20,000 nucleotides of DNA from an uncultured virus (IMG/VR IMGVR_UViG_3300042569_001792) (IMGVR_UViG_3300042569_001792), one strand, 5' to 3'. Shown: positions 332 through 19,331, counted from the stretch's first letter. The notes: generated by a model from the letters alone, not told the origin. Made by a program: numbers and translations.

Positions 332-912
332 GACCACCTTATTTAACATTTATTCATTATAAATATGATGACAACGAAGACTTTAAAAGAGTAACTTGTT
401 TTGCTGGCATGGATCTATCCTCACTAAAATCTGTTAGATTTTATATAGATGATTGTTTAGGTCGATCAGATGTAGATAAATATTTTGATTTTCTAAAATC
501 CGTATTTGATATTGAATTTGGATTTGTATTTAATACAGCCCCAAAAATCGTTAAGAACGGGAATATGGAAAATGTAGTAGATGTTTCTTTGGACTTATCT
601 TCATATAGTCGAGTACAGTGTCTAACTATACTAACATTACTAAGATATGTTCAGGAATTTCCCGAGATAGTGGAAAAAACAACAGAAAATGAGGCGAATT
701 GGGAATCTTTTAAAGATGGCCATAAACACTGGAATGAAATTAGAAAGGGTACGGAAACAAAAGTTAAGTACGATAATGCTTATGGACATGGAATAGCTTG
801 TACTGACTATACCAAAGGTCATTTCATGCAAGATAATTTCTGTTCATTAGAAAAGTTTAAATTAAACTTTAGTAAAGCTCTAACAGGGTATGTTAAAAAC
901 CTTTTCCAATAA
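328..912 (+). CDS. Hypothetical phage protein
   Basis: 194-aa ORF coupled to the GATase by an ATGA overlap; no recognised domain. Confidence 0.75.
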   Translation: MRPPYLTFIHYKYDDNEDFKRVTCFAGMDLSSLKSVRFYIDDCLGRSDVDKYFDFLKSVFDIEFGFVFNTAPKIVKNGNMENVVDVSLDLSSYSRVQCLTILTLLRYVQEFPEIVEKTTENEANWESFKDGHKHWNEIRKGTETKVKYDNAYGHGIACTDYTKGHFMQDNFCSLEKFKLNFSKALTGYVKNLFQ

Positions 913-919
913 AAAACTC

Positions 920-947
920 TTGACTTCTTTAAAAACTGTGCTATAAT
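920..947 (+). promoter_or_regulatory. Sigma70-type promoter with extended -10
   Basis: TTGACT (920-925), 16 nt, TATAAT (942-947), with TG at 939-940; intergenic. Confidence 0.85.
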
Positions 948-995
948 TACAAATCGAAACAATCCACAACAAACCAACAATAGAAAAACAAAAAT

Positions 996-1325
996 ATGAA
1001 TAAGACACTAACTACAAAAATCATCAATAAAAACGGTAAGCGGCTTGGATTTATGGTCGCTACAAAAAACGAGAATAATGAAGTCCTGCTTGGATTTTCG
1101 CTATGCTGCAAGAAAGATAAGTTTAATTATGATCGCGGTCTTCATATCGCTACAAACCGCTCTTTCAAGGGAGTAACAAAATTCCCTCATAGTCTAAAGA
1201 GTAAGGTGGCTAATTTCCATGGTCGTTGTGTTAAGTATTTTAAGGATGCTGCGGTGCCATCTATGGAAATGTTTACATTTGTAAATACGAAGGAAGAAAA
1301 CGAAGAAGAAAAACAAGGCGAATGA
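996..1325 (+). CDS. Hypothetical phage protein
   Basis: 109-aa ORF after a promoter and an A-rich leader; contains GFSLCCKKDKFNYDRGLHIATNR, which resembles a motif seen in small phage proteins; function unknown. Confidence 0.75.
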   Translation: MNKTLTTKIINKNGKRLGFMVATKNENNEVLLGFSLCCKKDKFNYDRGLHIATNRSFKGVTKFPHSLKSKVANFHGRCVKYFKDAAVPSMEMFTFVNTKEENEEEKQGE

Positions 1326-1726
1326 AATTAAATATCTCTGTCGAGGATCGACTTACTGCGGGCATAATCCTATTCGGCCCGGAAGTTAAGCCTATAATGG
1401 ATAACGAATTTGATATTAAAGGCTCCTACGCTTTTATTAGAAATAACCAGTTATTTATCATTGGTATGCACGTTCGTCCGTATAAAATGACGGATGGATT
1501 CAGTAAAGTCGATCCTCGCAGGGATCGTAACTTAAAAGTTACAAAATCCGAACTAAGATTCTTAAAAGAGAAACATAAGAAAGGTTTCTCGATTATTCCA
1601 GAATCTGTGGAATATATTAAAGGCAAGTTTAGAGTGATTCTAGCTATTGGCAAACCATTGAAAAAATGGGATAAAAGATCAAAGGAAAAGGAAAGAGAAT
1701 CCGAAAAAGAAATGAAGGAGTATTAA
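1322..1726 (+). CDS. smpB: SsrA-binding protein SmpB (divergent, shortened)
   Basis: AGIILFGPEVKPI matches AGxxLxGxEVKS; also SYAFI, MHVRPY, DPRRDRNL (DPxRxRKL), KGFSIIP and KKWDKR (KKxxDKR). A tmRNA lies 1.9 kb downstream. Confidence 0.92.
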   Translation: MKLNISVEDRLTAGIILFGPEVKPIMDNEFDIKGSYAFIRNNQLFIIGMHVRPYKMTDGFSKVDPRRDRNLKVTKSELRFLKEKHKKGFSIIPESVEYIKGKFRVILAIGKPLKKWDKRSKEKERESEKEMKEY

Positions 1727-1728
1727 TT

Positions 1729-2484
1729 ATGGTATATTTTTTTCAAGTTGATAAGGACGGTGATGTTTTAAATTGGGATGATGTTGAATGGGATGATTGT
1801 GATGATTCAGATCATCTAAAAGAAGATAGTTGTAGAGCTAGAAGGCACCAACTTATCTTTAGATATATGAATTCTAATAGTAAGAAACTTATAAAGACCA
1901 AAACAGTCTTGGGTATAACAACTAATAGCTCAGAAGCGGATATTAAAAGATGTGTCAAAATTCTTAATGAGTTAGAGGAGAAAGTTGGTTTAAGTAAAAC
2001 AACTTATAAAAAGTCTGCAATAAGCAATAAACAGTTTGTAGTTAAAGGCGAGGTCTGGAAAAGATATATCTTTACTGGAAGTAAATTATGGAGTATTGCG
2101 CCGCCAACTCATAGCCTTTATACGTTACTAATTAGATTGTTGGTCGATGGTGGTGAAAAAATGCCAGCTAATTTTAAGATAGGGGTATCAGAATTACTAT
2201 ATGATTTTCGTTTTTTGACTGACCACTGTGAATATAACAAGATCTATAATGAAATTATCCCCTTCACCTCTAGTATTGGAGAAATATTCGGGTCTAGTAT
2301 AACTAGAAATTACAAGATAAATATTAATAATTTGAATGATGAGGATATCTATAATTTTGAATGGGATATTCATAATTTTGGAATTCAATCATTTTTGTAT
2401 GAGTATTACCCAGACGACAATGAGAAATTCACAAAAAAAGCAAAAAAATGGTTCTCTAAATATAAACAAATAATAAAACAATAA
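1729..2484 (+). CDS. Hypothetical protein, paralog A1
   Basis: 251-aa ORF sharing CRARRH, W.IAPP.HSLYTLLIRLL and IHNFGI blocks with 2486..3211. Confidence 0.8.
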   Translation: MVYFFQVDKDGDVLNWDDVEWDDCDDSDHLKEDSCRARRHQLIFRYMNSNSKKLIKTKTVLGITTNSSEADIKRCVKILNELEEKVGLSKTTYKKSAISNKQFVVKGEVWKRYIFTGSKLWSIAPPTHSLYTLLIRLLVDGGEKMPANFKIGVSELLYDFRFLTDHCEYNKIYNEIIPFTSSIGEIFGSSITRNYKININNLNDEDIYNFEWDIHNFGIQSFLYEYYPDDNEKFTKKAKKWFSKYKQIIKQ

Positions 2485-2485
2485 C

Positions 2486-3211
2486 ATGGACACTTACTTT
2501 TACTACTTTACAATTGACAAAGATAACGGAATTCTGCCTTTTTACTACAGTGATAAAGAATACCCAGGCTTAAATAAAAATACCTGCCGGGCAAGGCGGC
2601 ATGAAATTTACCATTACTATTTCAAAAATGATATTAAAGATGTATCAATTAAAGATACTCTGGTTGGTATTGGAACGCCAAGTGTGAATTTAGAAAATGT
2701 GATTTCCAATCTACATAGATTTGAAGATATCGTTGGAATAAGGAGATCTAAAATTGAAAAATTTGAAAATGGTGGCTCCCCACTTACTCCAGATTGTGTT
2801 CAATATAAAGTTACGGGTAGCTATTGGTGGGGAATTGCCCCGCCGATTCATAGTCTTTATACTTTGCTAATTAGACTTTTAGTTAGGATTGAACAAAATA
2901 TTTCAGGTAAGGTATTTAATATTGGTGAAGACGATCTTGATTTTATTATTACAAATGATAAAGCGGAGTATGATAGAATTAAATCGCGTATCCTACCATT
3001 AATGAAAAACGTAAAAAAGATCTTTCCTAAAAATAAGAAAGAGAATTATGTTTATTCAACTAACGAAAGTGCCCAAGGTAACATACATAATTTTGGTATA
3101 GAAATTTTTATGAGAGATAGTCCTCCTGCATATTTCTTAAAGGAGGAAAGAGATAAAATAAAGGAATTACAAGATAAATTTAAAGAAGTTCTTGACTTTC
3201 ATCAGAAGTGA
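2486..3211 (+). CDS. Hypothetical protein, paralog A2
   Basis: 241-aa ORF; tandem paralog of 1729..2484. Confidence 0.8.
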   Translation: MDTYFYYFTIDKDNGILPFYYSDKEYPGLNKNTCRARRHEIYHYYFKNDIKDVSIKDTLVGIGTPSVNLENVISNLHRFEDIVGIRRSKIEKFENGGSPLTPDCVQYKVTGSYWWGIAPPIHSLYTLLIRLLVRIEQNISGKVFNIGEDDLDFIITNDKAEYDRIKSRILPLMKNVKKIFPKNKKENYVYSTNESAQGNIHNFGIEIFMRDSPPAYFLKEERDKIKELQDKFKEVLDFHQK

Positions 3212-3219
3212 TGTATAGT
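3192..3219 (+). promoter_or_regulatory. Sigma70-type promoter, probably leaderless
   Basis: TTGACT (3192-3197), 16 nt, TATAGT (3214-3219); ATG at 3225. Confidence 0.7.
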
Positions 3220-3224
3220 ACAAC

Positions 3225-3587
3225 ATGTCAAGAAAAGATCATCTACAGAAACTAATTTCGTGGGCCAAACATCATAAAGAGTTTTTGCAAATGAGACGGC
3301 AGTTTCATGTTGCCGCAATTTATAAAAGAAATAAACTAATATCTATTGCGACGAATAGTTTGAAAAGTCACCCATTAATGGCTGGATTTTATCCAGACTA
3401 TCCAGGAATGGGATTGCACGCAGAACTTGCGGCGATTATTCAAGCTGGAATTGACGGCGACTTCACGAAAAAAAGTCTTTATGTGATTAGAATTGACAAT
3501 AATGGAAATCTGGCTAATAGTAAACCGTGTATATATTGCCAGAGATTGATAGATAAACTAAAATTCAAAAGTGTAGAACACTCATAA
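3225..3587 (+). CDS. Zn-dependent cytidine/dCMP-deaminase-fold protein
   Basis: HAELAAI (HxE) and SKPCIYC (PCxxC) zinc motifs. Confidence 0.85.
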   Translation: MSRKDHLQKLISWAKHHKEFLQMRRQFHVAAIYKRNKLISIATNSLKSHPLMAGFYPDYPGMGLHAELAAIIQAGIDGDFTKKSLYVIRIDNNGNLANSKPCIYCQRLIDKLKFKSVEHS

Positions 3588-3596
3588 ATTTAACAC

Positions 3597-3973
3597 GGGG
3601 GTGAATGGACAGATAATAAATACATACAAATAAGAACGCAAGCAGTGGATGATTCGTTGGCCACTTAAAAAATCGAATCAAAAAAGAAAAGACGAAACAA
3701 ACATTGATAGTCTTATGGCACAGGCTGAAGCGATCTTCGCTAATCCAGATGCCTATCTCGCCGAAAGCGAGGTTTCCGCTAAAACCGAGGCTTACGCTTT
3801 AGTTTGAGTGAAATAAATCTAAAGAAATTTCTCTTTATACTTTAGATTATTTAAAAGAGAACCCGCCTAGAAATAGGATATTCAGACATGAAGAAAAAAA
3901 TGTAAACGCTTGTAATTCGGTCTTATAGTTTTGTTTATTAAAAGGGGGGTTCGATTCCTCCCCACCTCCACCA
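3597..3973 (+). ncRNA. ssrA: tmRNA (one-piece, 377 nt)
   Basis: 5' GGGGGTG pairs with CACCTCC-A-CCA (3963-3973) with the G3:U70 Ala determinant. T-arm contains GTTCGATTC. Helix 2 pairings are 3614-3621/3933-3940, 3630-3635/3921-3926 and 3638-3643/3908-3913. pk1 pairs 3644-3648/3661-3665 and 3650-3656/3674-3680. The tag frame ends AYALV-TGA at 3807. Confidence 0.95.
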
Positions 3974-3987
3974 ATTTCAAAAACAGC

Positions 3988-4015
3988 TTGACTTTCTGTA
4001 AAGCTGTGGTATAAT
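3988..4015 (+). promoter_or_regulatory. Sigma70-type promoter with extended -10, leaderless
   Basis: TTGACT (3988-3993), 16 nt, TATAAT (4010-4015) preceded by TGn; ATG at 4022. Confidence 0.85.
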
Positions 4016-4021
4016 ACAAAC

Positions 4022-4912
4022 ATGCACAAATTATCTCTCTGTTGTATCCATAATGGTCTGTCCAAACAAGGCCACTCATTTAAGACAATGACCTTTAAAA
4101 AGTTTGCTTCTATGAATAGAAGTATGGCTATTAAAGAATTATCGTCTATTTATCTAAATAATCTTTCTGTAACTTGGCGGATTATTAATGAGTGTGTCGC
4201 TAATGGTTGGCATTATAGGGTAAGTAGTTCATTATTTCCATTACTTACATTTCCAGAGGCAAGTATTTGTCTTGAAGATATGCCCGGCTTTAATCAGATT
4301 CTAGTTCAATTAGAAAGAATTAGAAATACAGTAGTTAGCTCTGGCATTAAACTATCCTCTCATCCAGATCAATTTAATGTTTTAGCCTCTTTTAATCCTA
4401 AAGTAGTTAAAGCTACAGTTGATGAGCTTAGTTTCCATGGGTGGCTACTGACTATGATGGGCGGTGAATCGAACTATTCCTGCCCAATTAATATTCACAT
4501 GAATACATATAAAGGCGACCTAAAGGATATCGCCCGTAGTTTCAGAGATAATTTCAATCTACTTGACGATAGTGTCAAAAGTCGTTTAGTTCTCGAGAAC
4601 GAAGACAAACCTAATTCTTGGTCAACTAAAGAGCTTATTGACTGTCACGATATTCTAAAAGTGCCAATTACATTCGATAATCTACATTGGCAACTTAATC
4701 AAAAAGGTATGTCCGAGGAAGATGCCTTTCATTCTTCTTATCAAACTTGGGATACAGTTCCAAGATTTCACTTTAGCGGCAGCGAGGGTAAATTAAATCC
4801 TCGGGCGCACGCAGATATGCCAAGTAATACTCCAAATAATTTTGGGCGTGATGTTATATGGGATGTAGAATTTAAAGCTAAGGAACTTGCACTTAAATGG
4901 ATTCAAAAGTAA
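4022..4912 (+). CDS. uvsE: UV DNA damage endonuclease UvsE (UVDE)
   Basis: YRVSSSLFP, LSSHPDQFNVLAS, INIH, RLVLENEDK, VPITFDNLH, PRFHFS, AHAD and DVEFKAKELAL are the characteristic UvdE motifs. Confidence 0.95.
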   Translation: MHKLSLCCIHNGLSKQGHSFKTMTFKKFASMNRSMAIKELSSIYLNNLSVTWRIINECVANGWHYRVSSSLFPLLTFPEASICLEDMPGFNQILVQLERIRNTVVSSGIKLSSHPDQFNVLASFNPKVVKATVDELSFHGWLLTMMGGESNYSCPINIHMNTYKGDLKDIARSFRDNFNLLDDSVKSRLVLENEDKPNSWSTKELIDCHDILKVPITFDNLHWQLNQKGMSEEDAFHSSYQTWDTVPRFHFSGSEGKLNPRAHADMPSNTPNNFGRDVIWDVEFKAKELALKWIQK

Positions 4913-6630: not shown

Positions 6631-7146
6631 ATGAAAAAACACGAAGACTATATCACCCATATTTCAAATAAAGAAGACGCTCCATATTTATATGGGAAGC
6701 ATTTTCCCGTAAATATGCGTTTATTCAAAACATCGCCAGAATACAAAGCAATTATTCTGAGTATGTGTTCTTATATTAGAGAGCTTTGCCTAGATGTTAA
6801 AGAGGGGTATAAAAAACCCCATGGAATGAGTTCAGCAAATGCTGGATTAGCATTTAATATCATCGGTATCACAAGAAATAGAAATTCTAAACAAGAATAT
6901 TGTGAAATAATGATAAATCCAGAAATTCTTGATTGCTCTAAAGATATGGTAGAATCTATGAGTAATTGTGGAAGTATTAATTTAGAAAAGCCTATTAAGA
7001 TAAAAAGATATTCAGAAGTTAAAGTGGGATATTTCAATGAAAACGGAGAATATCTTTGCAAGATATTTGATAGGGAGAATGGCTCTCTTACTATTCAACA
7101 TGAAATAGATCATAATTTAGGAATACTGATAACTGATAGAGTTTAA
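6631..7146 (+). CDS. def: Peptide deformylase (divergent)
   Basis: IMINPEIL, IKRYSEVKVGY and the metal motif IQHEIDHNLGILITDR. Motifs 1 and 2 are degenerate (HGMSSAN; SNCGS). Confidence 0.88.
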   Translation: MKKHEDYITHISNKEDAPYLYGKHFPVNMRLFKTSPEYKAIILSMCSYIRELCLDVKEGYKKPHGMSSANAGLAFNIIGITRNRNSKQEYCEIMINPEILDCSKDMVESMSNCGSINLEKPIKIKRYSEVKVGYFNENGEYLCKIFDRENGSLTIQHEIDHNLGILITDRV

Positions 7147-7205: not shown

Positions 7206-8195
7206 ATGACAAAGTATCATCAAGCATTCAATTCAGTAGTTGGTCAAGACGAAGCTAAACAATTACTATCTCTCTCCATTCAGTCGGGCGTAAATAATGG
7301 GCGGATGTTGTCGCCTCTTATTGAGGCACCAGCAGGAGTCGGTAAAACAAAAATTTCAGACGCTTATATTCAAGCATTAGCGGATGAAGGTATTCCCACT
7401 CTACGTTATTCTTCCCCGGAAGAATTCAGATCAGAGGGCGAGGCTTATGACCAATTTGTTCATACTATCTGTAACGAAGAAAAATACGCTATCTTTATTG
7501 ATGAAATCCACCTGATTGATAATCGTAAAACAGTCAGAATGGAAAGAATTAAGGCTTTTCTTATGAAAGCTTTAGATAAAGAAAACAATGGTAAGCCAAT
7601 CCGATTCGATGAAGACAATATTGTCTATTTTGATAGGAGTCGCGGAAGTATCGTTCTTGCAACTAACTTTCCGCATAAATTGGATTCAAGCGGAGCGTTT
7701 CAAAGTCGCTGCGATTCAATTAGGCTAAAAACCTATTCAGAAGATGAATTGATTGATATTTTGCAACAAATGCTTGCAGATTCTGGAATGCACCCAGCTA
7801 ATCCAGAAACTTTAAGGGCTATTGCTCAAACTGGAAGAGGAACAGCAAGGCCAATGAAAAATATCATTGACCAAATTGGTCTTCAATTCCAAGCGCAGGG
7901 AATCGAAAAGAAAACAATCAATAAAAAAGATGTTTTCCAGGCACTAAAGATGTGCCGAATTTATCCAATGGGTATAACCCCTAATGAACTATTGATTATG
8001 GATTTCTGTAAAACTCCATATAAGGATAATGTAGTTACGGCGCGGTTTCCTCATTTCGATACGCAAACTTTTAGAAACTCTAAGAGTTATCTATTGTCCC
8101 TTGGTTTTATTGAGCAATCTAGTTCTGGGGTAAAGGTTACAAATAACGGTCTTCTATATATGAAGAAATTGAAAGAAATTAAACTTTTGGATTGA
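7206..8195 (+). CDS. ruvB: RuvB-like AAA+ ATPase (Holliday junction branch-migration family)
   Basis: VVGQDEAKQLL, Walker A APAGVGKT, Walker B IFIDEIH, VLATN (sensor 1), SRC (Arg finger), RGTAR (sensor 2) and a C-terminal wHTH-like region ending in VKVTNNG. Confidence 0.8.
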   Translation: MTKYHQAFNSVVGQDEAKQLLSLSIQSGVNNGRMLSPLIEAPAGVGKTKISDAYIQALADEGIPTLRYSSPEEFRSEGEAYDQFVHTICNEEKYAIFIDEIHLIDNRKTVRMERIKAFLMKALDKENNGKPIRFDEDNIVYFDRSRGSIVLATNFPHKLDSSGAFQSRCDSIRLKTYSEDELIDILQQMLADSGMHPANPETLRAIAQTGRGTARPMKNIIDQIGLQFQAQGIEKKTINKKDVFQALKMCRIYPMGITPNELLIMDFCKTPYKDNVVTARFPHFDTQTFRNSKSYLLSLGFIEQSSSGVKVTNNGLLYMKKLKEIKLLD

Positions 8196-8657: not shown

Positions 8658-9689
8658 ATGGGTGGCAATCTATTACAGAAATGGGAACTACCTCCTAAAC
8701 GGGCTTCTAGGGACGAATACATTGAGATTGAGAATATTCTTATTCGCGAGTTCTCTGGTAATTCATATATTGGGTTTCCAAGACAATTACCAGATAAGGA
8801 AACTTTTGGGGACGTAGATTTTGTCCTCTCTCCTCAATCTCATTTAGACAGTCAGGAGTTTAACTTATACTTCAATAGTCTAAAAGATTTTGTCCATGGA
8901 AAGTTTGGGTACAAGCCGCATGTAAACGGAAATGTAATTAGCTTTCCAGTTAATGAAATCCAAGTGGATTGTAATGTTTATGAAAATGATATGTTTCATT
9001 CTGCACTATCCTATGGAGATTTTGGTGACGTATCTAATTTAGTAGGCCGCATGGCTTATAAACTTGGATTACATCTTGGCCATAATGGTTTATCATACTG
9101 GTTGTCTAATTATCATTTCGATAAGGTAAATCAAAATTCACATGTAATTGAAAAGATAGTTTTAATCAAAGATTATCCAAGTATATTGAAATTCTTGGAT
9201 TTAGATAGTCAGAAATGGTTAAAAGGATTCTCATCTTTAGAAGATGTTTTTGAATGGATTATTCAGTCGAAATACTTTTCGCATGATCTATTTAAGATGG
9301 AGAATTTGAATCATGTAAATCGAAAGAGAAATAGTAAAAGATCTCAATATAATTACTTCTTGGAATGGTGTGAAAAAAATAAAGATAGATTTAAGCCGGT
9401 TGAATATCAATCTAAAGATATTTATCTTTACTGGTATATGGATCTCTTTCCATATCTTCGCCAGCGCATTGAGTTTCATAGGAAAAATTGGGAAAAGAAA
9501 CAGCTTGCAAAAAGTAAATTCAATGGTACATTGATCTTACAATGGCTCGGGTTGAAACAAGAGGATTGGTTGACTATTAAAAAATTAGTTGATCTTTTCA
9601 AAAGTCAAAACTCATTAGAAGGGTCATGGGAAGAAGTTAAACAAGATTTTCTTAAATTCTATGAAACATACCTGCAAAATCCCCAATAA
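8658..9689 (+). CDS. Pol-beta superfamily nucleotidyltransferase-like protein
   Basis: KETFGDVDF (GDxD) and a third Asp in IQVDC; MGGN N-terminus; C-terminal KFNGTLILQWLGL tail. Confidence 0.7.
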   Translation: MGGNLLQKWELPPKRASRDEYIEIENILIREFSGNSYIGFPRQLPDKETFGDVDFVLSPQSHLDSQEFNLYFNSLKDFVHGKFGYKPHVNGNVISFPVNEIQVDCNVYENDMFHSALSYGDFGDVSNLVGRMAYKLGLHLGHNGLSYWLSNYHFDKVNQNSHVIEKIVLIKDYPSILKFLDLDSQKWLKGFSSLEDVFEWIIQSKYFSHDLFKMENLNHVNRKRNSKRSQYNYFLEWCEKNKDRFKPVEYQSKDIYLYWYMDLFPYLRQRIEFHRKNWEKKQLAKSKFNGTLILQWLGLKQEDWLTIKKLVDLFKSQNSLEGSWEEVKQDFLKFYETYLQNPQ

Positions 9690-10281
9690 AATTACAATTT
9701 GTGTATCTGGTGGTGTCGATTCTGTCGCCGCCGCTTATTTACTCTCTAAACACAGAGGTAAAGATATTCAATTGTATCATTTTAATCACAGGACAAAGCA
9801 GGCAGATATAATGGAAGAAAAGGTAAGAGAGTTTGCAGAATTTCTAAATAAACCTCTTATTGTAAAAAGAGCAGAGACTGAATTGAGAACTGAATCAGAA
9901 TTTAGAGCCGCAAGATTTAAGTATTTTGAAACAGGTGAGTATAGAGATGTGGTTACAGCCCATCATCTAGGAGACTGTATTGAATCTTATTTGATGAACT
10001 GTTTTAAAGGGCATAATGATTGGAAAGTTCCAATTAGACCAACTAGCCTTCATGAAAACTTTGCGATCCTTCACCCATTTCTACTTTTTACAAAAGATAA
10101 CTTCAAACATCATTGCGTAAAGAATAATCTAATGAGATTTGTTTGTGAAGACGAAACCAACGAGCAGAATATTTGCAGGCGGAATTTTATTCGCAATACA
10201 ATCGTACCTCTATTAAATCAAGAGAATATCTTTATTGAGAAAGTAGTAAGAAAACAATACCTAAAATATATCAATGAGTGA
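9661..10281 (+). CDS. tilS: tRNA(Ile)-lysidine synthetase, catalytic domain only
   Basis: PP-loop SGGVDS, HFNHRT, RAARF, TAHHLGDCIES, PFLLFTK, EDETN and RRNFIRNTIVP. Confidence 0.9.
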   Translation: MKHTCKIPNKITICVSGGVDSVAAAYLLSKHRGKDIQLYHFNHRTKQADIMEEKVREFAEFLNKPLIVKRAETELRTESEFRAARFKYFETGEYRDVVTAHHLGDCIESYLMNCFKGHNDWKVPIRPTSLHENFAILHPFLLFTKDNFKHHCVKNNLMRFVCEDETNEQNICRRNFIRNTIVPLLNQENIFIEKVVRKQYLKYINE

Positions 10282-11456: not shown

Positions 11457-11535
11457 CTGTCGGTATCCGGTAATTGGCTTCCGACTGCTTTTGGGAAGCA
11501 GATTGATGCAGGTTCGAGTCCTGTCCGACAGACCA
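11457..11535 (+). tRNA. trnP: tRNA-Pro(TGG)
   Basis: Acceptor CTGTCGG/CCGACAG, A73, encoded CCA; anticodon arm CTGCT-TTTGGGA-AGCAG; T-loop GTTCGAGTC. Confidence 0.92.
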
Positions 11536-11544
11536 TTTTAGTAT

Positions 11545-11617
11545 GTGGCGGTGGTGCAACGGTTTAGCACATATCCCTTTCAAGGATAAGATGGGAGTTC
11601 GATTCTCCTCCGCCATA
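11545..11617 (+). tRNA. trnE: tRNA-Glu(TTC), CCA not encoded
   Basis: Acceptor GTGGCGG/CCGCCAT; anticodon arm TATCC-CTTTCAA-GGATA; T-arm GGGAG-TTCGATT-CTCCT. Confidence 0.88.
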
Positions 11618-11668
11618 CTAAAAAATATTTCCTGATAATTCAAAAAAAGAGTGTAACTTAAAAAACAT

Positions 11669-11747
11669 TGCGGGGTAGAGCAGTTTGGTCAAGCCCGTCG
11701 GTCTCATAAGCCGAAAATCGTGGGTTCAAATCCCACCCCCGCAACCA
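11669..11747 (+). tRNA. trnM: tRNA-Met(CAT), initiator-like
   Basis: TGCGGGG/CCCCGCA-A-CCA; anticodon arm TCGGT-CTCATAA-GCCGA; overall sequence close to bacterial tRNA-fMet. Confidence 0.9.
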
Positions 11748-11753
11748 ATTTAT

Positions 11754-11827
11754 TCCCATGTAGCACAATGCTGTGCAATTGTTTGTTACACAATAGGTTG
11801 TAGGTTCGAGTCCTACCATGGGAGCCA
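11754..11827 (+). tRNA. trnN: tRNA-Asn(GTT) #1
   Basis: TCCCATG/CATGGGA-G-CCA; anticodon arm ATTGT-TTGTTAC-ACAAT; T-arm GTAGG-TTCGAGT-CCTAC. Confidence 0.88.
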
Positions 11828-11842
11828 ATTTCAAAAATAAAT

Positions 11843-12568
11843 CTATTTAAGAGTAGATAAATCTATTCCATTTCTTGCCAAGAATTTCCTAATACTATTA
11901 TCGCTTCTATTTAGATCTCTACCGGCTTGACTAAAAGAAGAAGCCTTTACCATTGATATGATTTCCTCTATAGGCGGCCAACTTAATGTATTTTTTCCTC
12001 GGCGGGATAGATTTTCACATTTCCTACATTTAGTAGAATTTTTGCGAATAACTTCGTTGCAAATAGGGCAATAATCATATCTTTTTAATCTTTTGCCAGA
12101 AAAAGTATCTGTTTGACTATGGCAATTAGGGCATAAAAAACGAAGATTATCAATTCTATTATCATTTGATACTCCATTTAAATGATCTAATTGTAAAGAT
12201 AAAGGTTTTCCAAAATGTGTTCCATCATTACCACATATAGCACATTTATAATCTAAAATATTTAATTTTAATAGTTTTATTTTTATGTCATGACGACTAT
12301 TGTATGTGCTATTTTCACAGAATATATCATCGAATGGTCTTGATCTTTCAGGAAATTTAAGATTTTTTCTATGGAAATCTTTATTTTCATTAAATTTAGT
12401 TAAATCTATATTATCTTCTATTATTCGTATTTTTAATGTACGGTGATTTCCGTTATACGCATTTAATCCTATTTCTTTCAATATACCACAGAAAGTATAA
12501 TGACGATCAAACATATCTTGTAAATTCTCACGACTCATTTTCCATACAATGCTTTTTCTTCTACTCAT
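11843..12568 (-). mobile_element. Free-standing HNH homing-type endonuclease gene
   Basis: CAICG...LQLDHLNGVSNDNRIDNLRFLCPNCHSQT (HNH), a further Zn ribbon (CPIC...CRKC) and an HTH-like C-terminus. It is the only convincing minus-strand gene and sits at the tRNA cluster. Confidence 0.9.
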
Positions 12569-15622: not shown

Positions 15623-15905
15623 TTTCGAGAAATGCAAAAAGCATTTCGAGGGAATTAAAAGAACCGTTAATGAGAATATTAAATTCACTCTATCTCTTAG
15701 AGAAGGTGACTATGTATTAAAAGCCGCAGATGACAATGAATATGTAAGTGGATACCTTGGATTTGATAGTTTTGGAGGCCATTTATCTTTTGGCCGCAGG
15801 CAGGATGCTCTATGGATCAAAAGAGAAGAAATACCAGAGTTGAAGAAATACTTTAATGATTTTAAAGGATTTAAATTACTTAAATTAAGTAAGAATAAGA
15901 AATGA
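15594..15905 (+). CDS. Hypothetical protein
   Basis: 103-aa ORF overlapping both neighbours. Confidence 0.65.
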   Translation: MKIKERQLANFEKCKKHFEGIKRTVNENIKFTLSLREGDYVLKAADDNEYVSGYLGFDSFGGHLSFGRRQDALWIKREEIPELKKYFNDFKGFKLLKLSKNKK

Positions 15906-16471
15906 TAAACTATTTTATAATTCAAAAATCAATAGATTTCTATGATAAAGTAGGATTCACCCGAATAGAAACCCCTTGGTATGTATCAAAAAATGTCGCG
16001 GCTATTACAAAACCACCTAATTTAAGAGACGATGAATTTATATTAAATCACAACGATAAAAGATTGGTGGCAAGCGGCGAGCAGGGTTTTCTTTATCTAT
16101 ATCTAAAAGGTTTTCTTCCGAAAGGAAAATTCCAAACTGTAACTCCTTGTTTCAGATTTGAAAGTCACGATGAAACTCACACAAAAACATTCATTAAAAA
16201 TGAGTTGATTTCAACGTCCGATATATCAAAGACTACATTAGAATCTATAATTAGCAATTGTTATAACTATTTTAAATCTATTGGATTTGACAATAAATTA
16301 AATGTAGTGAAAACGGACATTGGATTTGATATAAATTACTTAGATACAGAGTTGGGAAGTTACGGAATAAGAGAAACTTCTTTCTTAAAGTATATTTATG
16401 CGACTGGTGTTAGTGAGCCAAGAGCATCCTACCTATTAAATAAATATGAGCTACCATACAAGGAAAATTGA
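15902..16471 (+). CDS. Stand-alone class II aminoacyl-tRNA-synthetase-like catalytic core
   Basis: Motif 1 GFTRIETP, LVASGEQ (TxE-like), motif 2 TPCFRFE...H...FIKNE, motif 3-like ELGSYG...ATGVSEPR; only 189 aa. Confidence 0.75.
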   Translation: MINYFIIQKSIDFYDKVGFTRIETPWYVSKNVAAITKPPNLRDDEFILNHNDKRLVASGEQGFLYLYLKGFLPKGKFQTVTPCFRFESHDETHTKTFIKNELISTSDISKTTLESIISNCYNYFKSIGFDNKLNVVKTDIGFDINYLDTELGSYGIRETSFLKYIYATGVSEPRASYLLNKYELPYKEN

Positions 16472-19144: not shown

Positions 19145-19216
19145 TGTTTCGTAGCTTAATTAGAGCGATCCTCCGTTAAGGGATAGGTGTAAGTTTAAAT
19201 CTTACCGGAACAGCCA
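19145..19216 (+). tRNA. trnN: tRNA-Asn(GTT) #2, non-canonical
   Basis: TGTTTCG/CGGAACA-G-CCA; anticodon arm ATCCT-CCGTTAA-GGGAT; T-arm GTAAG-TTTAAAT-CTTAC; short D-loop without GG. Confidence 0.78.
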
Positions 19217-19240: not shown

Positions 19241-19331
19241 GGGAGATTAAGCGGGCTGGGCTTGCCTCTGTCTTGAAAACAGGTGGATCGAATAGTATTC
19301 GGTTGGGGTTCGATTCCTCAGTCTCCCGCCA
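19241..19331 (+). tRNA. trnS: tRNA-Ser(TGA), probable 8/4 structure
   Basis: GGGAGATT/AGTCTCCC-G-CCA; anticodon arm TCTGT-CTTGAAA-ACAGG; long variable arm ATCGAAT-AGT-ATTCGGT; T-loop TTCGATT. Confidence 0.88.

Follow-up and report, generated by a model that had tools for sequence, protein, structure and literature searches.

Does a phage encode a trans-translation system of its own, and would the two parts of that system belong together? The question is raised by a 20,000-nucleotide (nt) stretch of DNA from an uncultured virus (IMG/VR IMGVR_UViG_3300042569_001792), referred to in its entirety as the window, which carries a gene for the protein SmpB and, further along the same strand, an ssrA gene for its partner, the transfer-messenger RNA (tmRNA). 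An earlier note, made from the sequence alone, had described the two as a self-contained and divergent ribosome-rescue pair, possibly co-evolved and orthogonal. We find both genes, each divergent from the cellular consensus, and consider that the pair is probably a working phage trans-translation module encoded in one unit.

Identity, fold, and selection on SmpB

The smpB and ssrA genes are both on the plus strand with 1870 nt between them, inside 2.7 kb, and Pfam and Rfam matches place them where the earlier note had put them, 1.9 kb apart. The open reading frame (ORF) of smpB reaches 98.3 bits with Pfam PF01668 (cut-off, 27; E value, 4.8e-28), its residues 4 to 132 covering positions 10 to 138 of the 143-position profile, and a phmmer search with the protein retrieved 15 solved SmpB chains, headed by 7ljp_A (E value, 6e-18). 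Its fold is that of SmpB: the AlphaFold2 model, based on 123 aligned sequences (mean pLDDT, 83.9), has the beta-barrel and a C-terminal helix at residues 115 to 133, and the first 20 PDB matches listed by Foldseek (to rank 21) are all SmpB chains, with TM scores of 0.73 to 0.81 for the top nine and a root mean square deviation of 1.5 Å over 112 columns to 2czj_C and of 1.4 Å over 113 columns to 4v8q.

A HMMER search of 1.84 billion representatives with this SmpB gave 2805 matches at an E value of ≤1e-3, of which a single one (P0007, with 53% identity and also 134 amino acids [aa]) reached ≤1e-30, all other matches listed having at most 43% identity over the matched stretch. A candidate homolog of 1067 aa with about 11 tandem repeats (P0038; E value, 1.3e-15) looks like a translated satellite repeat and was discarded as spurious. 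From the homolog search and cluster members we obtained a clade of nine sequences sharing 52 to 99% identity; the longest contigs coding for its members P0005, P0006, and P0007 measure 14, 5, and 155 kb, respectively. The clade was compared with two sets, namely, 143 other representatives of 110 to 200 aa drawn from the 150 best, with the exclusion of 8 longer rows, and 80 named cellular SmpBs, picked by one peptide pattern and with whole phyla missing. A gene with 93% identity (L001) differs from smpB by 29.5 synonymous and 10.5 nonsynonymous changes, and the resulting dN/dS of 0.066 indicates that smpB is under strong purifying selection. The start and length of the protein, as well as the clade-specific changes described below, are kept across the clade down to 52% identity.

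A quick maximum-likelihood tree of 101 rows, a check that the earlier note had proposed, recovers the clade as one group (SH-aLRT, 95) on a stem of 0.71, separate from all named phyla in the sample and from the SmpBs of huge phages, with long-branch warnings applying to this position. As the cellular rows come from a single peptide pattern and the branches are long, the tree names no SmpB donor; Patescibacteria were considered for this role and not adopted on the same grounds.

SmpB divergence at functional positions

The absence of the usual N-terminal NKKAxxxY segment, pointed out in the earlier note, turned out to be stronger than had been claimed. All nine clade members have 13 residues before a conserved Gly, versus at least 19 in 138 of the 143 representatives and at least 20 in all 80 cellular proteins, whose counts are upper estimates because each cellular ORF was taken from its first start codon. 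The remaining five representatives, with 0 to 3 residues, look like truncated gene calls. There is no in-frame ATG, GTG, or TTG upstream of the smpB start, and each full-length SmpB in the comparison starts some 6 or more residues ahead of the clade SmpB, which lacks the N-[KR]-[KR]-A..H-x-Y segment. A conserved Tyr column, with Tyr or Phe in 131 of 143 representatives and 80 of 80 cellular proteins, holds Ile in the window's subclade. Likewise, the RKLLL patch reads RNLKV in the window's SmpB, and its middle Leu (142/143 representatives; 79/80 cellular) is replaced by Lys or Cys throughout the clade (9/9), Cys being the residue of the P0007 branch.

Near the C terminus, the translation reads KPLKKWDKR instead of KGKKxxDKR, in agreement with the earlier observation. 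DKR is retained in the clade, and KGKK has become KPLKK, with Pro in the Gly column of all nine members. This Pro is unusual, being shared by 6 of the 143 representatives, 121 of which have Gly, as do 80/80 cellular proteins. The Trp preceding DKR is not unusual, as its column among the 143 representatives contains Tyr (64), His (25), Phe (17), and Trp (11). The C-tail is short, as had been noted, with 15 residues after DKR in the clade versus a median of 20 among the representatives and 16 to 29 in cellular proteins, but it is not unique, since 13 of the 143 have 15 or fewer. It contains 5 Lys/Arg residues and is predicted to be helical at low pLDDT.

We mapped these positions onto the Escherichia coli protein by means of the alignments and the motif positions given in passages of PMC8363625 and PMC4151336. 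The phage SmpB begins at about E. coli position 20, and His22, Tyr24, Tyr55, Leu91, Gly132, and His136 correspond to Leu3, Ile5, Tyr36, Lys72, Pro112, and Trp116, respectively, with Tyr36 invariant in the clade. In the E. coli complexes described by Guyomar et al. 2021 (PMC8363625), the stacking partner of His22 is A1493 in the A site and A790 in the P site, the four bases ahead of the resume codon are positioned by Tyr24 and Tyr55, tmRNA G19 stacks on SmpB Leu90-92 with U17 also contacted, and Rae et al. are cited as stressing Gly132 for the rotation of the C-terminal tail. Miller and Buskirk 2014 (PMC4151336) place KGKK from residue 131 and DKR from residue 137, report that DKR and the helical basic tail are required for accommodation, and describe the His136Tyr substitution as tolerated.

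tmRNA structure and D-loop

The ssrA gene matches Rfam RF00023 over the whole model (positions 1 to 374) with 65.6 bits (gathering cut-off, 47; E value, 7.3e-24), and its minimum free energy (MFE) z-score is −3.24. The MFE fold of the whole molecule did not reproduce helix 2 and the pseudoknots, and it was kept for the z-score only. The hallmarks of a tmRNA are present, including the acceptor stem with its G3-U70 pair, which is the alanine identity element, the T-arm, and a candidate for the pseudoknot PK1, identified by complementarity. The linker before the T-arm is AAA, and the usual GGAC reads AAAA here.

In the D-loop analogue, the GGACAGA of the earlier note was read again. The model consensus is GG-AUUC-GAC and the usual form is GG-NUUC-GAC, versus GG-ACA-GAU in the window, so that the equivalent of U17 is A and the equivalent of C18 is missing. 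Our viral panel comprises 22 tmRNAs (19 Rfam-confirmed from IMG/VR and 3 from phage records), and in all 21 whose D-loops could be parsed, the spacer between GG and GA has at least 4 nt and contains U. Among 52 cellular tmRNAs adjoining smpB, the spacer measures 4 nt in 50 and 3 nt in 1, with 1 unparsed. The sole cellular example of 3 nt (L162, from Kaiserbacteria) reads AUA.

ARAGORN made no call on this tmRNA at the default threshold or at thresholds lowered to 60%, and its call at 40% thresholds, an implausible permuted gene, was rejected. The program also misses the tmRNA of the phage LR756504 and 6 of the 19 Rfam-confirmed viral tmRNAs (missed loci: L012 [LR756504], L053, L028, L026, L036, L091, and L096), and ARAGORN-based censuses of phage tmRNAs must therefore undercount them.

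Tag reading frame and resume site

Two of the three frames of the messenger part are open. The frame ending in AYALV is rich in Ala and Glu, as known tags are, and the alternative codes for a basic peptide with an RLTL end; in our judgement, the AYALV frame is very likely the true tag frame. YAL is found within the last six residues of 19 of the 85 distinct tags that ARAGORN called in the panel. There are three candidates for the resume codon: GAC at 3691, giving a tag of 38 aa, which the Rfam alignment favors with low posterior probability; AUU at 3703, giving 34 aa, with CAAAC ahead as a good leader and a codon that does not begin with G; and GCA at 3718, giving 29 aa. At any of these lengths, only one of the 85 panel tags would be longer.

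The usual leader ([UC]A at positions −5/−4, a pyrimidine at −1, and G at +1) occurs in 112 to 114 of 114 ARAGORN-called tmRNAs, a frequency that partly reflects ARAGORN's own model. The best in-frame leader of the window scores −1.49 versus a range of −2.4 to 13 in the training set of these 114. An odd resume site beside an SmpB that lacks Tyr24 is suggestive at most.

A hint of RNA-level presence

A freshwater metatranscriptome run (X20) contains a 363-nt contig confined to 3610-3971, with 1 inserted base and 10 differences; in that run, neither the 2.2 kb of coding DNA upstream nor the sequence downstream is really covered (pieces of 36 and 41 nt with 5 to 6 mismatches). Regions lacking cover in runs X12 and X15, as well as RNA rows of small share except X20, were set aside as evidence. 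Since this evidence is a contig and derives from a 97%-identical relative, it hints at a stable RNA of tmRNA size and does not prove one. A second, far deeper contig of the same run has only 3637-3685 in common with the window, followed by a different tag, and represents another organism's tmRNA. More abundant lake tmRNAs share at least 80% identity over the PK1 region alone (3637-3685) and then continue into short canonical tags, one of them at a depth of 898 in the RNA run; these abundant PK1-sharing tmRNAs may point to the donor or host lineage.

The interface between the partners

The earlier claim of a divergent phage pair stands in that the pair appears to be phage borne, both of its parts are divergent, and the changes fall on elements that contact each other in the E. 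coli complexes. In these complexes, as described in passages of PMC8363625, the Leu90-92 patch lies opposite the part of the D-loop around G19 and U17, and His22 and Tyr24 face the decoding center and the resume leader. Co-adaptation or orthogonality of the pair is plausible, and the phage SmpB and tmRNA probably prefer each other. Two loci show that the one change can occur without the other: L162 combines the 3-nt D-loop spacer with an ordinary SmpB bearing NKKA and LLL, and LR756504 has an odd D-loop together with an ordinary SmpB N terminus. A D-loop change therefore needs no changes in SmpB.

Apparent transcription unit and neighboring genes

The smpB and ssrA genes are probably located on one transcription unit that would run from position 920 to the tmRNA (Table 1). 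The promoter-like sites at its two borders are identical TG-extended sigma-70-like matches and are the two best within 900-4300. The first ORF of the unit has no match in Pfam, PHROG, or NCBIfam, and its nearest ESM Atlas clusters are exclusively viral hypothetical proteins, both by features (0.91 to 0.92, with 200 to 205 shared) and by structure (TM score, 0.74). Between smpB and the deaminase gene lie two paralogous ORFs with 32% identity (BLASTP E value, 1e-31). Neither has a family match (for the upstream one, in Pfam, PHROG, and NCBIfam), and an AIPR identity suggested for the upstream one by the ESM Atlas (score, 0.91, with merely 148 shared features) was too weak to be adopted; the sole homologs found for the downstream one are 6 unnamed metagenome proteins with 35 to 100% identity. 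The stop codon of the deaminase-fold ORF lies 9 nt upstream of the tmRNA 5′ end.

Table 1 Features of the apparent smpB-ssrA unit and of its tmRNA
Feature	Coordinates	Strand	Description
Promoter-like site	920-947	+	TTGACT, 16 nt, TG-TATAAT; 11/12 match; likely unit start
ORF, no assigned function	996-1325	+	109 aa; TGA stop overlaps the smpB ATG (ATGA)
smpB	1322-1726	+	134 aa; Pfam SmpB
ORF, paralogue of 2486-3211	1729-2484	+	251 aa; between smpB and ssrA
ORF, paralogue of 1729-2484	2486-3211	+	241 aa; by BLASTP
Cytidine/deoxycytidylate-deaminase-fold protein	3225-3587	+	120 aa; PF00383, 27.6 bits (cut-off, 25); HAE and PCxxC motifs
ssrA (tmRNA)	3597-3973	+	One piece, 377 nt, encoded CCA; Rfam RF00023
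Acceptor stem, 5′ strand	3597-3603	+	Pairs with 3963-3969, giving G3-U70; followed by ACCA (3970-3973)
D-loop analogue	3604-3614	+	AAU-GG-ACA-GAU; one base short, no U in the spacer
PK1 candidate	3644-3679	+	Stem 3644-3648/3661-3665 interleaved with 3651-3656/3674-3679
Tag frame	3691-3807	+	Ends in TEAYALV; UGA at 3805-3807
Helix 2a, 3′ strand	3932-3940	+	Nine pairs in helix 2a
T-arm	3944-3962	+	Loop UUCGAUU
Promoter-like site	3988-4015	+	11/12 match, TG-extended; 15 nt past the tmRNA, before the UvdE gene; would mark the unit end

A lake strain detected in run X17 differs from the window at 68 of 835 bases over the second paralogue (2355-3189) and at 0 of 765 over 3336-4100, which includes the deaminase, the tmRNA, and the promoter; such a pattern points to mosaic divergence or to a tmRNA segment that was exchanged recently.

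Genomic context and phage assignment

On circumstantial grounds, we read the window as part of a large freshwater phage and not of a cell. The G+C content is 33.5%, nearly all ORFs are on the plus strand, and TAA, TGA, and TAG are all in use as stops. Of the 41 ORFs, only 9 have a Pfam match above cut-off. PHROG matches comprise a clamp loader, a DNA polymerase, an HNH endonuclease, a peptide deformylase, and a class II tRNA-synthetase-like protein, and ARAGORN and Rfam together give seven tRNA genes. The ORF at 8658-9689 has its best match in the 636-kb phage LR756504 (31.6% identity over 98% of its length), and in the phage collection, it matches only genomes of large phages (15 listed records of 156 to 735 kb); as the collection holds phages only, this shows phage kinship and does not exclude cells. 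For the clamp-loader-like ORF (7206-8195), tblastn found no match in phage records.

The sequence of the window recurs in freshwater and lake metagenomes, with 56 to 94% of the sampled words present in 12 DNA runs from 12 studies, a count that leaves out 5 runs flagged as possible sources. In one run, a contig of 228,596 nt overlaps part of the window. No SmpB clade member was found with the clade alignment in GTDB (one genome per species; 185,579 species), and no close relative of the locus was found in IMG/VR, either with SmpB alone or with the clade alignment. The JGI metagenomes searched yielded only the 1.2-kb contig L001, without a tmRNA, and a 35% relative (L002), and a search through the UvdE neighbor yielded one 30% relative with no tmRNA nearby. 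A 17-nt pattern from the 5′ part of the tmRNA had two chance matches in IMG/VR, neither with a tmRNA. The tmRNA 3′ end is shared by 121 IMG/VR loci, which have nothing else in common with this tmRNA except for a 43-nt match to the PK1 region in L137; an SmpB gene is found at 2 of these 121 loci (flanks of up to 3 kb on each side were available for 80).

Other genes related to translation are found downstream. A 206-aa protein (9661-10281, plus strand) matches the N-terminal domain of the lysidine synthetase TilS (TIGR02432, 100.6 bits; cut-off, 93.6) and is far shorter than a whole TilS, and a tRNA with anticodon CAT (11669-11747, plus strand) lies 1.4 kb downstream of it; the two may form a phage lysidine/tRNA-Ile2 system. 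The only sizeable gene on the minus strand codes for the HNH endonuclease (11843-12568; phrog_10822, 152.9 bits), which directly follows a cluster of four tRNAs (11457-11827) and looks like a homing-type insertion. The peptide deformylase is encoded at 6631-7146 (plus strand; PF01327, 60.8 bits) and the class II aminoacyl-tRNA-synthetase-like protein, of 189 aa, at 15902-16471 (plus strand; phrog_4806, 131.9 bits). The tRNA callers differ, with a tRNA at 19145-19213 given by Rfam alone (52.6 bits) and a tRNA-Pro and a tRNA-Ser (at 11457-11535 and 19241-19331) called by ARAGORN alone. In the IMG/VR panel, L036 (70 kb) codes for a GOLLD RNA (1025-1428; 338.5 bits) between tRNA genes, 1.2 kb upstream of its phage tmRNA, and L072 (25 kb) has 16 tRNA matches and a match to the tRNA-Sec model (48.9 bits; cut-off, 47) inside 4.2 kb.

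Comparison with known systems

Huge phages have been reported to carry tmRNAs and SmpB in the main part of PMC7162821 (Al-Shayeb et al. 2020), and the 10 searchable supplementary files of that paper contain no mention of either. We tested five phage records with an SmpB-like gene for a tmRNA. LR756504 and Prevotella phage Lak-A2 have SmpB and an Rfam-level tmRNA (65.2 and 58.2 bits, respectively), located more than 250 kb from smpB. LR756501 (L007) and LR756502 (L008) have a full-length SmpB and no tmRNA above the Rfam cut-off (with stricter filters, best hits of 28.7 and 25.7 bits). In MT835488, an S1-domain gene, smpB, and ssrA are arranged as in bacteria, and this locus is probably host DNA. 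The combination of SmpB and tmRNA is thus already known in huge phages; the altered form of this clade is new.

As in the window, the two trans-translation parts of LR756504 and Lak-A2 are accompanied by many tRNAs and other translation genes, and the LR756504 tmRNA resembles that of the window in its score, its first nine bases, a noncanonical D-loop ending in GAU, and its omission by ARAGORN. The arrangement is different, with more than 250 kb between the genes in the huge phages versus 1.9 kb and one apparent unit in the window. Moreover, all four huge-phage SmpBs keep N-[KR]-K-A..Y and the Leu patch, neither of which is kept in the window, as well as KGKK, and the tags of LR756504 (read from the sequence) and Lak-A2 (called by ARAGORN) have a canonical leader and an AA end, unlike that of the window.

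Compared to the bacterial SmpB-tmRNA systems of E. coli and Thermus thermophilus (PDB 7ac7, 6q98, 2czj, and 4v8q), the window preserves the SmpB fold, DKR, and a predicted C-terminal helix, together with G3-U70, the T-arm, a candidate PK1, a probable tag frame, and the order of smpB followed by ssrA. This order on one strand is the common bacterial layout, and the two genes are within 2.5 kb in 52 of the 80 cellular loci. The differences are an SmpB identity of at most 41% to anything beyond its own clade among the 1.84 billion representatives, the loss of approximately the first 19 residues of E. coli SmpB, including the conserved N-K-R and His22, a D-loop shorter by one base, and a much longer tag with a Val end and no usual leader.

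Phages with a tmRNA only (the mycobacteriophage Bxz1 group, Bacillus phage G, and the marine phage Melnitz) have a complete ssrA, as the window does, but rely on host SmpB. A tmRNA alone is commoner in phages, as stated in the earlier note: the portion of PMC9004378 that gives the census counts a tmRNA call in 402 of 18,146 phage genomes, and with the window's SmpB as a query, only 46 of 50,697 phage records match, several of them apparently edges of host DNA or of prophages. Passages of PMC4131195 and PMC9004378 propose that phage ssrA keeps hijacked translation running or tags host proteins for recycling. Reduced SmpBs are described in part of PMC4131195 for Carsonella, Hodgkinia, and hemoplasmas, where segments considered to matter for function are lost and the beta-barrel is kept. 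These tiny-genome proteins have lost the central loop and/or the C-tail, whereas in the window clade both are present and it is the N-terminal segment that is gone; the passages of this source (Hudson et al. 2014) bearing on natural variants list no SmpB without an N-terminal segment. In the literature on phage-encoded or viral SmpB and tmRNA, we found no study of partner specificity.

Probable function of the pair

The genes, the SmpB fold, the selection on smpB, the tmRNA hallmarks, and the hint of RNA presence fit best with a working trans-translation module. A large freshwater phage would encode the pair within a block of translation-related genes. The unit starting at 920 would comprise the small viral ORF, smpB, the two paralogues, the deaminase, and the tmRNA, the latter being cut out like a tRNA. 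A host enzyme would charge the tmRNA with alanine through G3-U70, phage SmpB would bind it, and EF-Tu would deliver the complex, in the infected cell, to ribosomes halted by broken or non-stop mRNAs. Translation would then switch to the tag frame and add a peptide of 29 to 38 residues ending in YALV, upon which the ribosome would be freed and the tagged product marked for host proteases. During the destruction or cleavage of host mRNA, the phage would benefit from ribosomes that are kept available and amino acids that are recycled. Both partners would have drifted together from the cellular consensus at their mutual interface. The word self-contained is justified with respect to the two dedicated parts, but not beyond them, as the phage must draw on its host for alanyl-tRNA synthetase, EF-Tu, RNase P, and the protease.

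Several observations weigh against this interpretation. In SmpB, the equivalents of His22 and Tyr24 are absent and that of Gly132 is Pro, so full activity is not to be assumed, and the protein stays below the NCBIfam equivalog cut-offs (TIGR00086, 98.3 versus 119.1; NF003843, 97.9 versus 130). With regard to the tag, Ala is the last residue in 83 of the 85 panel tags, none of which has the final Val of the window's tag; no match to the canonical resume signal ([UC]A[AG]N[UC] and then G) is found in the AYALV frame, and the sole exact E. coli leader, UAGUC at 3708-3712, sets the RLTL frame instead. The 19 promoter-like sites in 900-4300 are not enriched over shuffled sequences (15.1; standard deviation, 4.5), and for this reason we infer only the boundaries of the unit and the promoter function. 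The X20 contig comes from a relative, and contigs prove neither transcription, RNA ends, nor strand. Last, the window contains no phage structural gene in its 20,000 nt, which is why the phage assignment is circumstantial.

A naturally orthogonal rescue system, in which SmpB and tmRNA work only with each other and add a long phage-specific tag ending in YALV, would be a more extreme version of the same module, and we regard it as unlikely though worth keeping in mind. SmpB would have given up the part of the N terminus with which the decoding center is read and the frame set, and would have remodeled its Leu patch and Gly hinge, with a matching tmRNA elbow and a noncanonical resume site. With such a system, ribosome rescue or the marking of host nascent chains by the phage would be independent of the host tmRNA-SmpB or would compete with it.

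Somewhat less likely still is interference, in which SmpB and/or the tmRNA would act as decoys that occupy stalled ribosomes or the host's RNase R, SmpB, or tmRNA, or would sense the translational state of the host, and no tagging would be completed. The missing His22 and Tyr24 equivalents, the Pro in place of Gly132, the short tail, and a tag frame without canonical resume signal would all suit such a role, for which there is precedent in mycobacteriophage DS6A, whose molecule consisting of only a tRNA-like domain is proposed in a passage of PMC4131195 to titrate SmpB, and in the phage sensing of stalled ribosomes mentioned in the main part of PMC7162821. However, a decoy would need neither a full-length tmRNA with PK1 nor a long frame with a YAL-type end before its stop, and SmpB retains DKR, the aromatic residue preceding it, and the predicted basic C-terminal helix, with both genes conserved together in one unit.

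It is improbable that the genes are decaying passengers, a host-captured pair that is drifting with one or both parts nonfunctional. The scores are low, as the tmRNA, with 65.6 bits, falls below all 19 other IMG/VR viral tmRNAs (75.6 to 189.8 bits) and SmpB below its equivalog cut-offs, conserved SmpB motifs are lost, and ARAGORN fails on the tmRNA. Against decay stand the dN/dS of 0.066 and the persistence of the clade-specific changes down to 52% identity, an intact acceptor stem, T-arm, and open tag frame, and the recurrence of the locus in metagenomes of lakes and fresh water from 12 further studies, with an RNA-library contig over the tmRNA.

Housekeeping copies on a contig from a small-genome bacterium, for instance, a Patescibacteria-like one, are very improbable, since the usual gene order and spacing, best named cellular matches that include Patescibacteria (at most 40% identity), and patescibacterial tmRNAs whose tags are long and whose D-loops are odd (the sole further 3-nt case among them) are outweighed by 32 of 41 ORFs without a Pfam family above cut-off, PHROG-type replication genes, the HNH gene by the tRNA cluster, ORFs with only viral or huge-phage relatives, three unrelated genes separating smpB from ssrA, and a clade that is missing from the GTDB species genomes and lies outside the named phyla sampled on its 0.71 stem.

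Significance

Phage SmpB and tmRNA have so far been known together only as a line in a gene census. As a probable working module, the pair described here makes its clade a natural experiment on near-universal parts of SmpB, namely, the N-terminal His/Tyr segment, the Leu patch on which G19 stacks, and the Gly hinge, in combination with a tmRNA altered in the elbow that faces SmpB and in its resume site. Should the pair work, it would show which of these contacts are dispensable or replaceable, and it would offer a compact candidate for an orthogonal tagging system.

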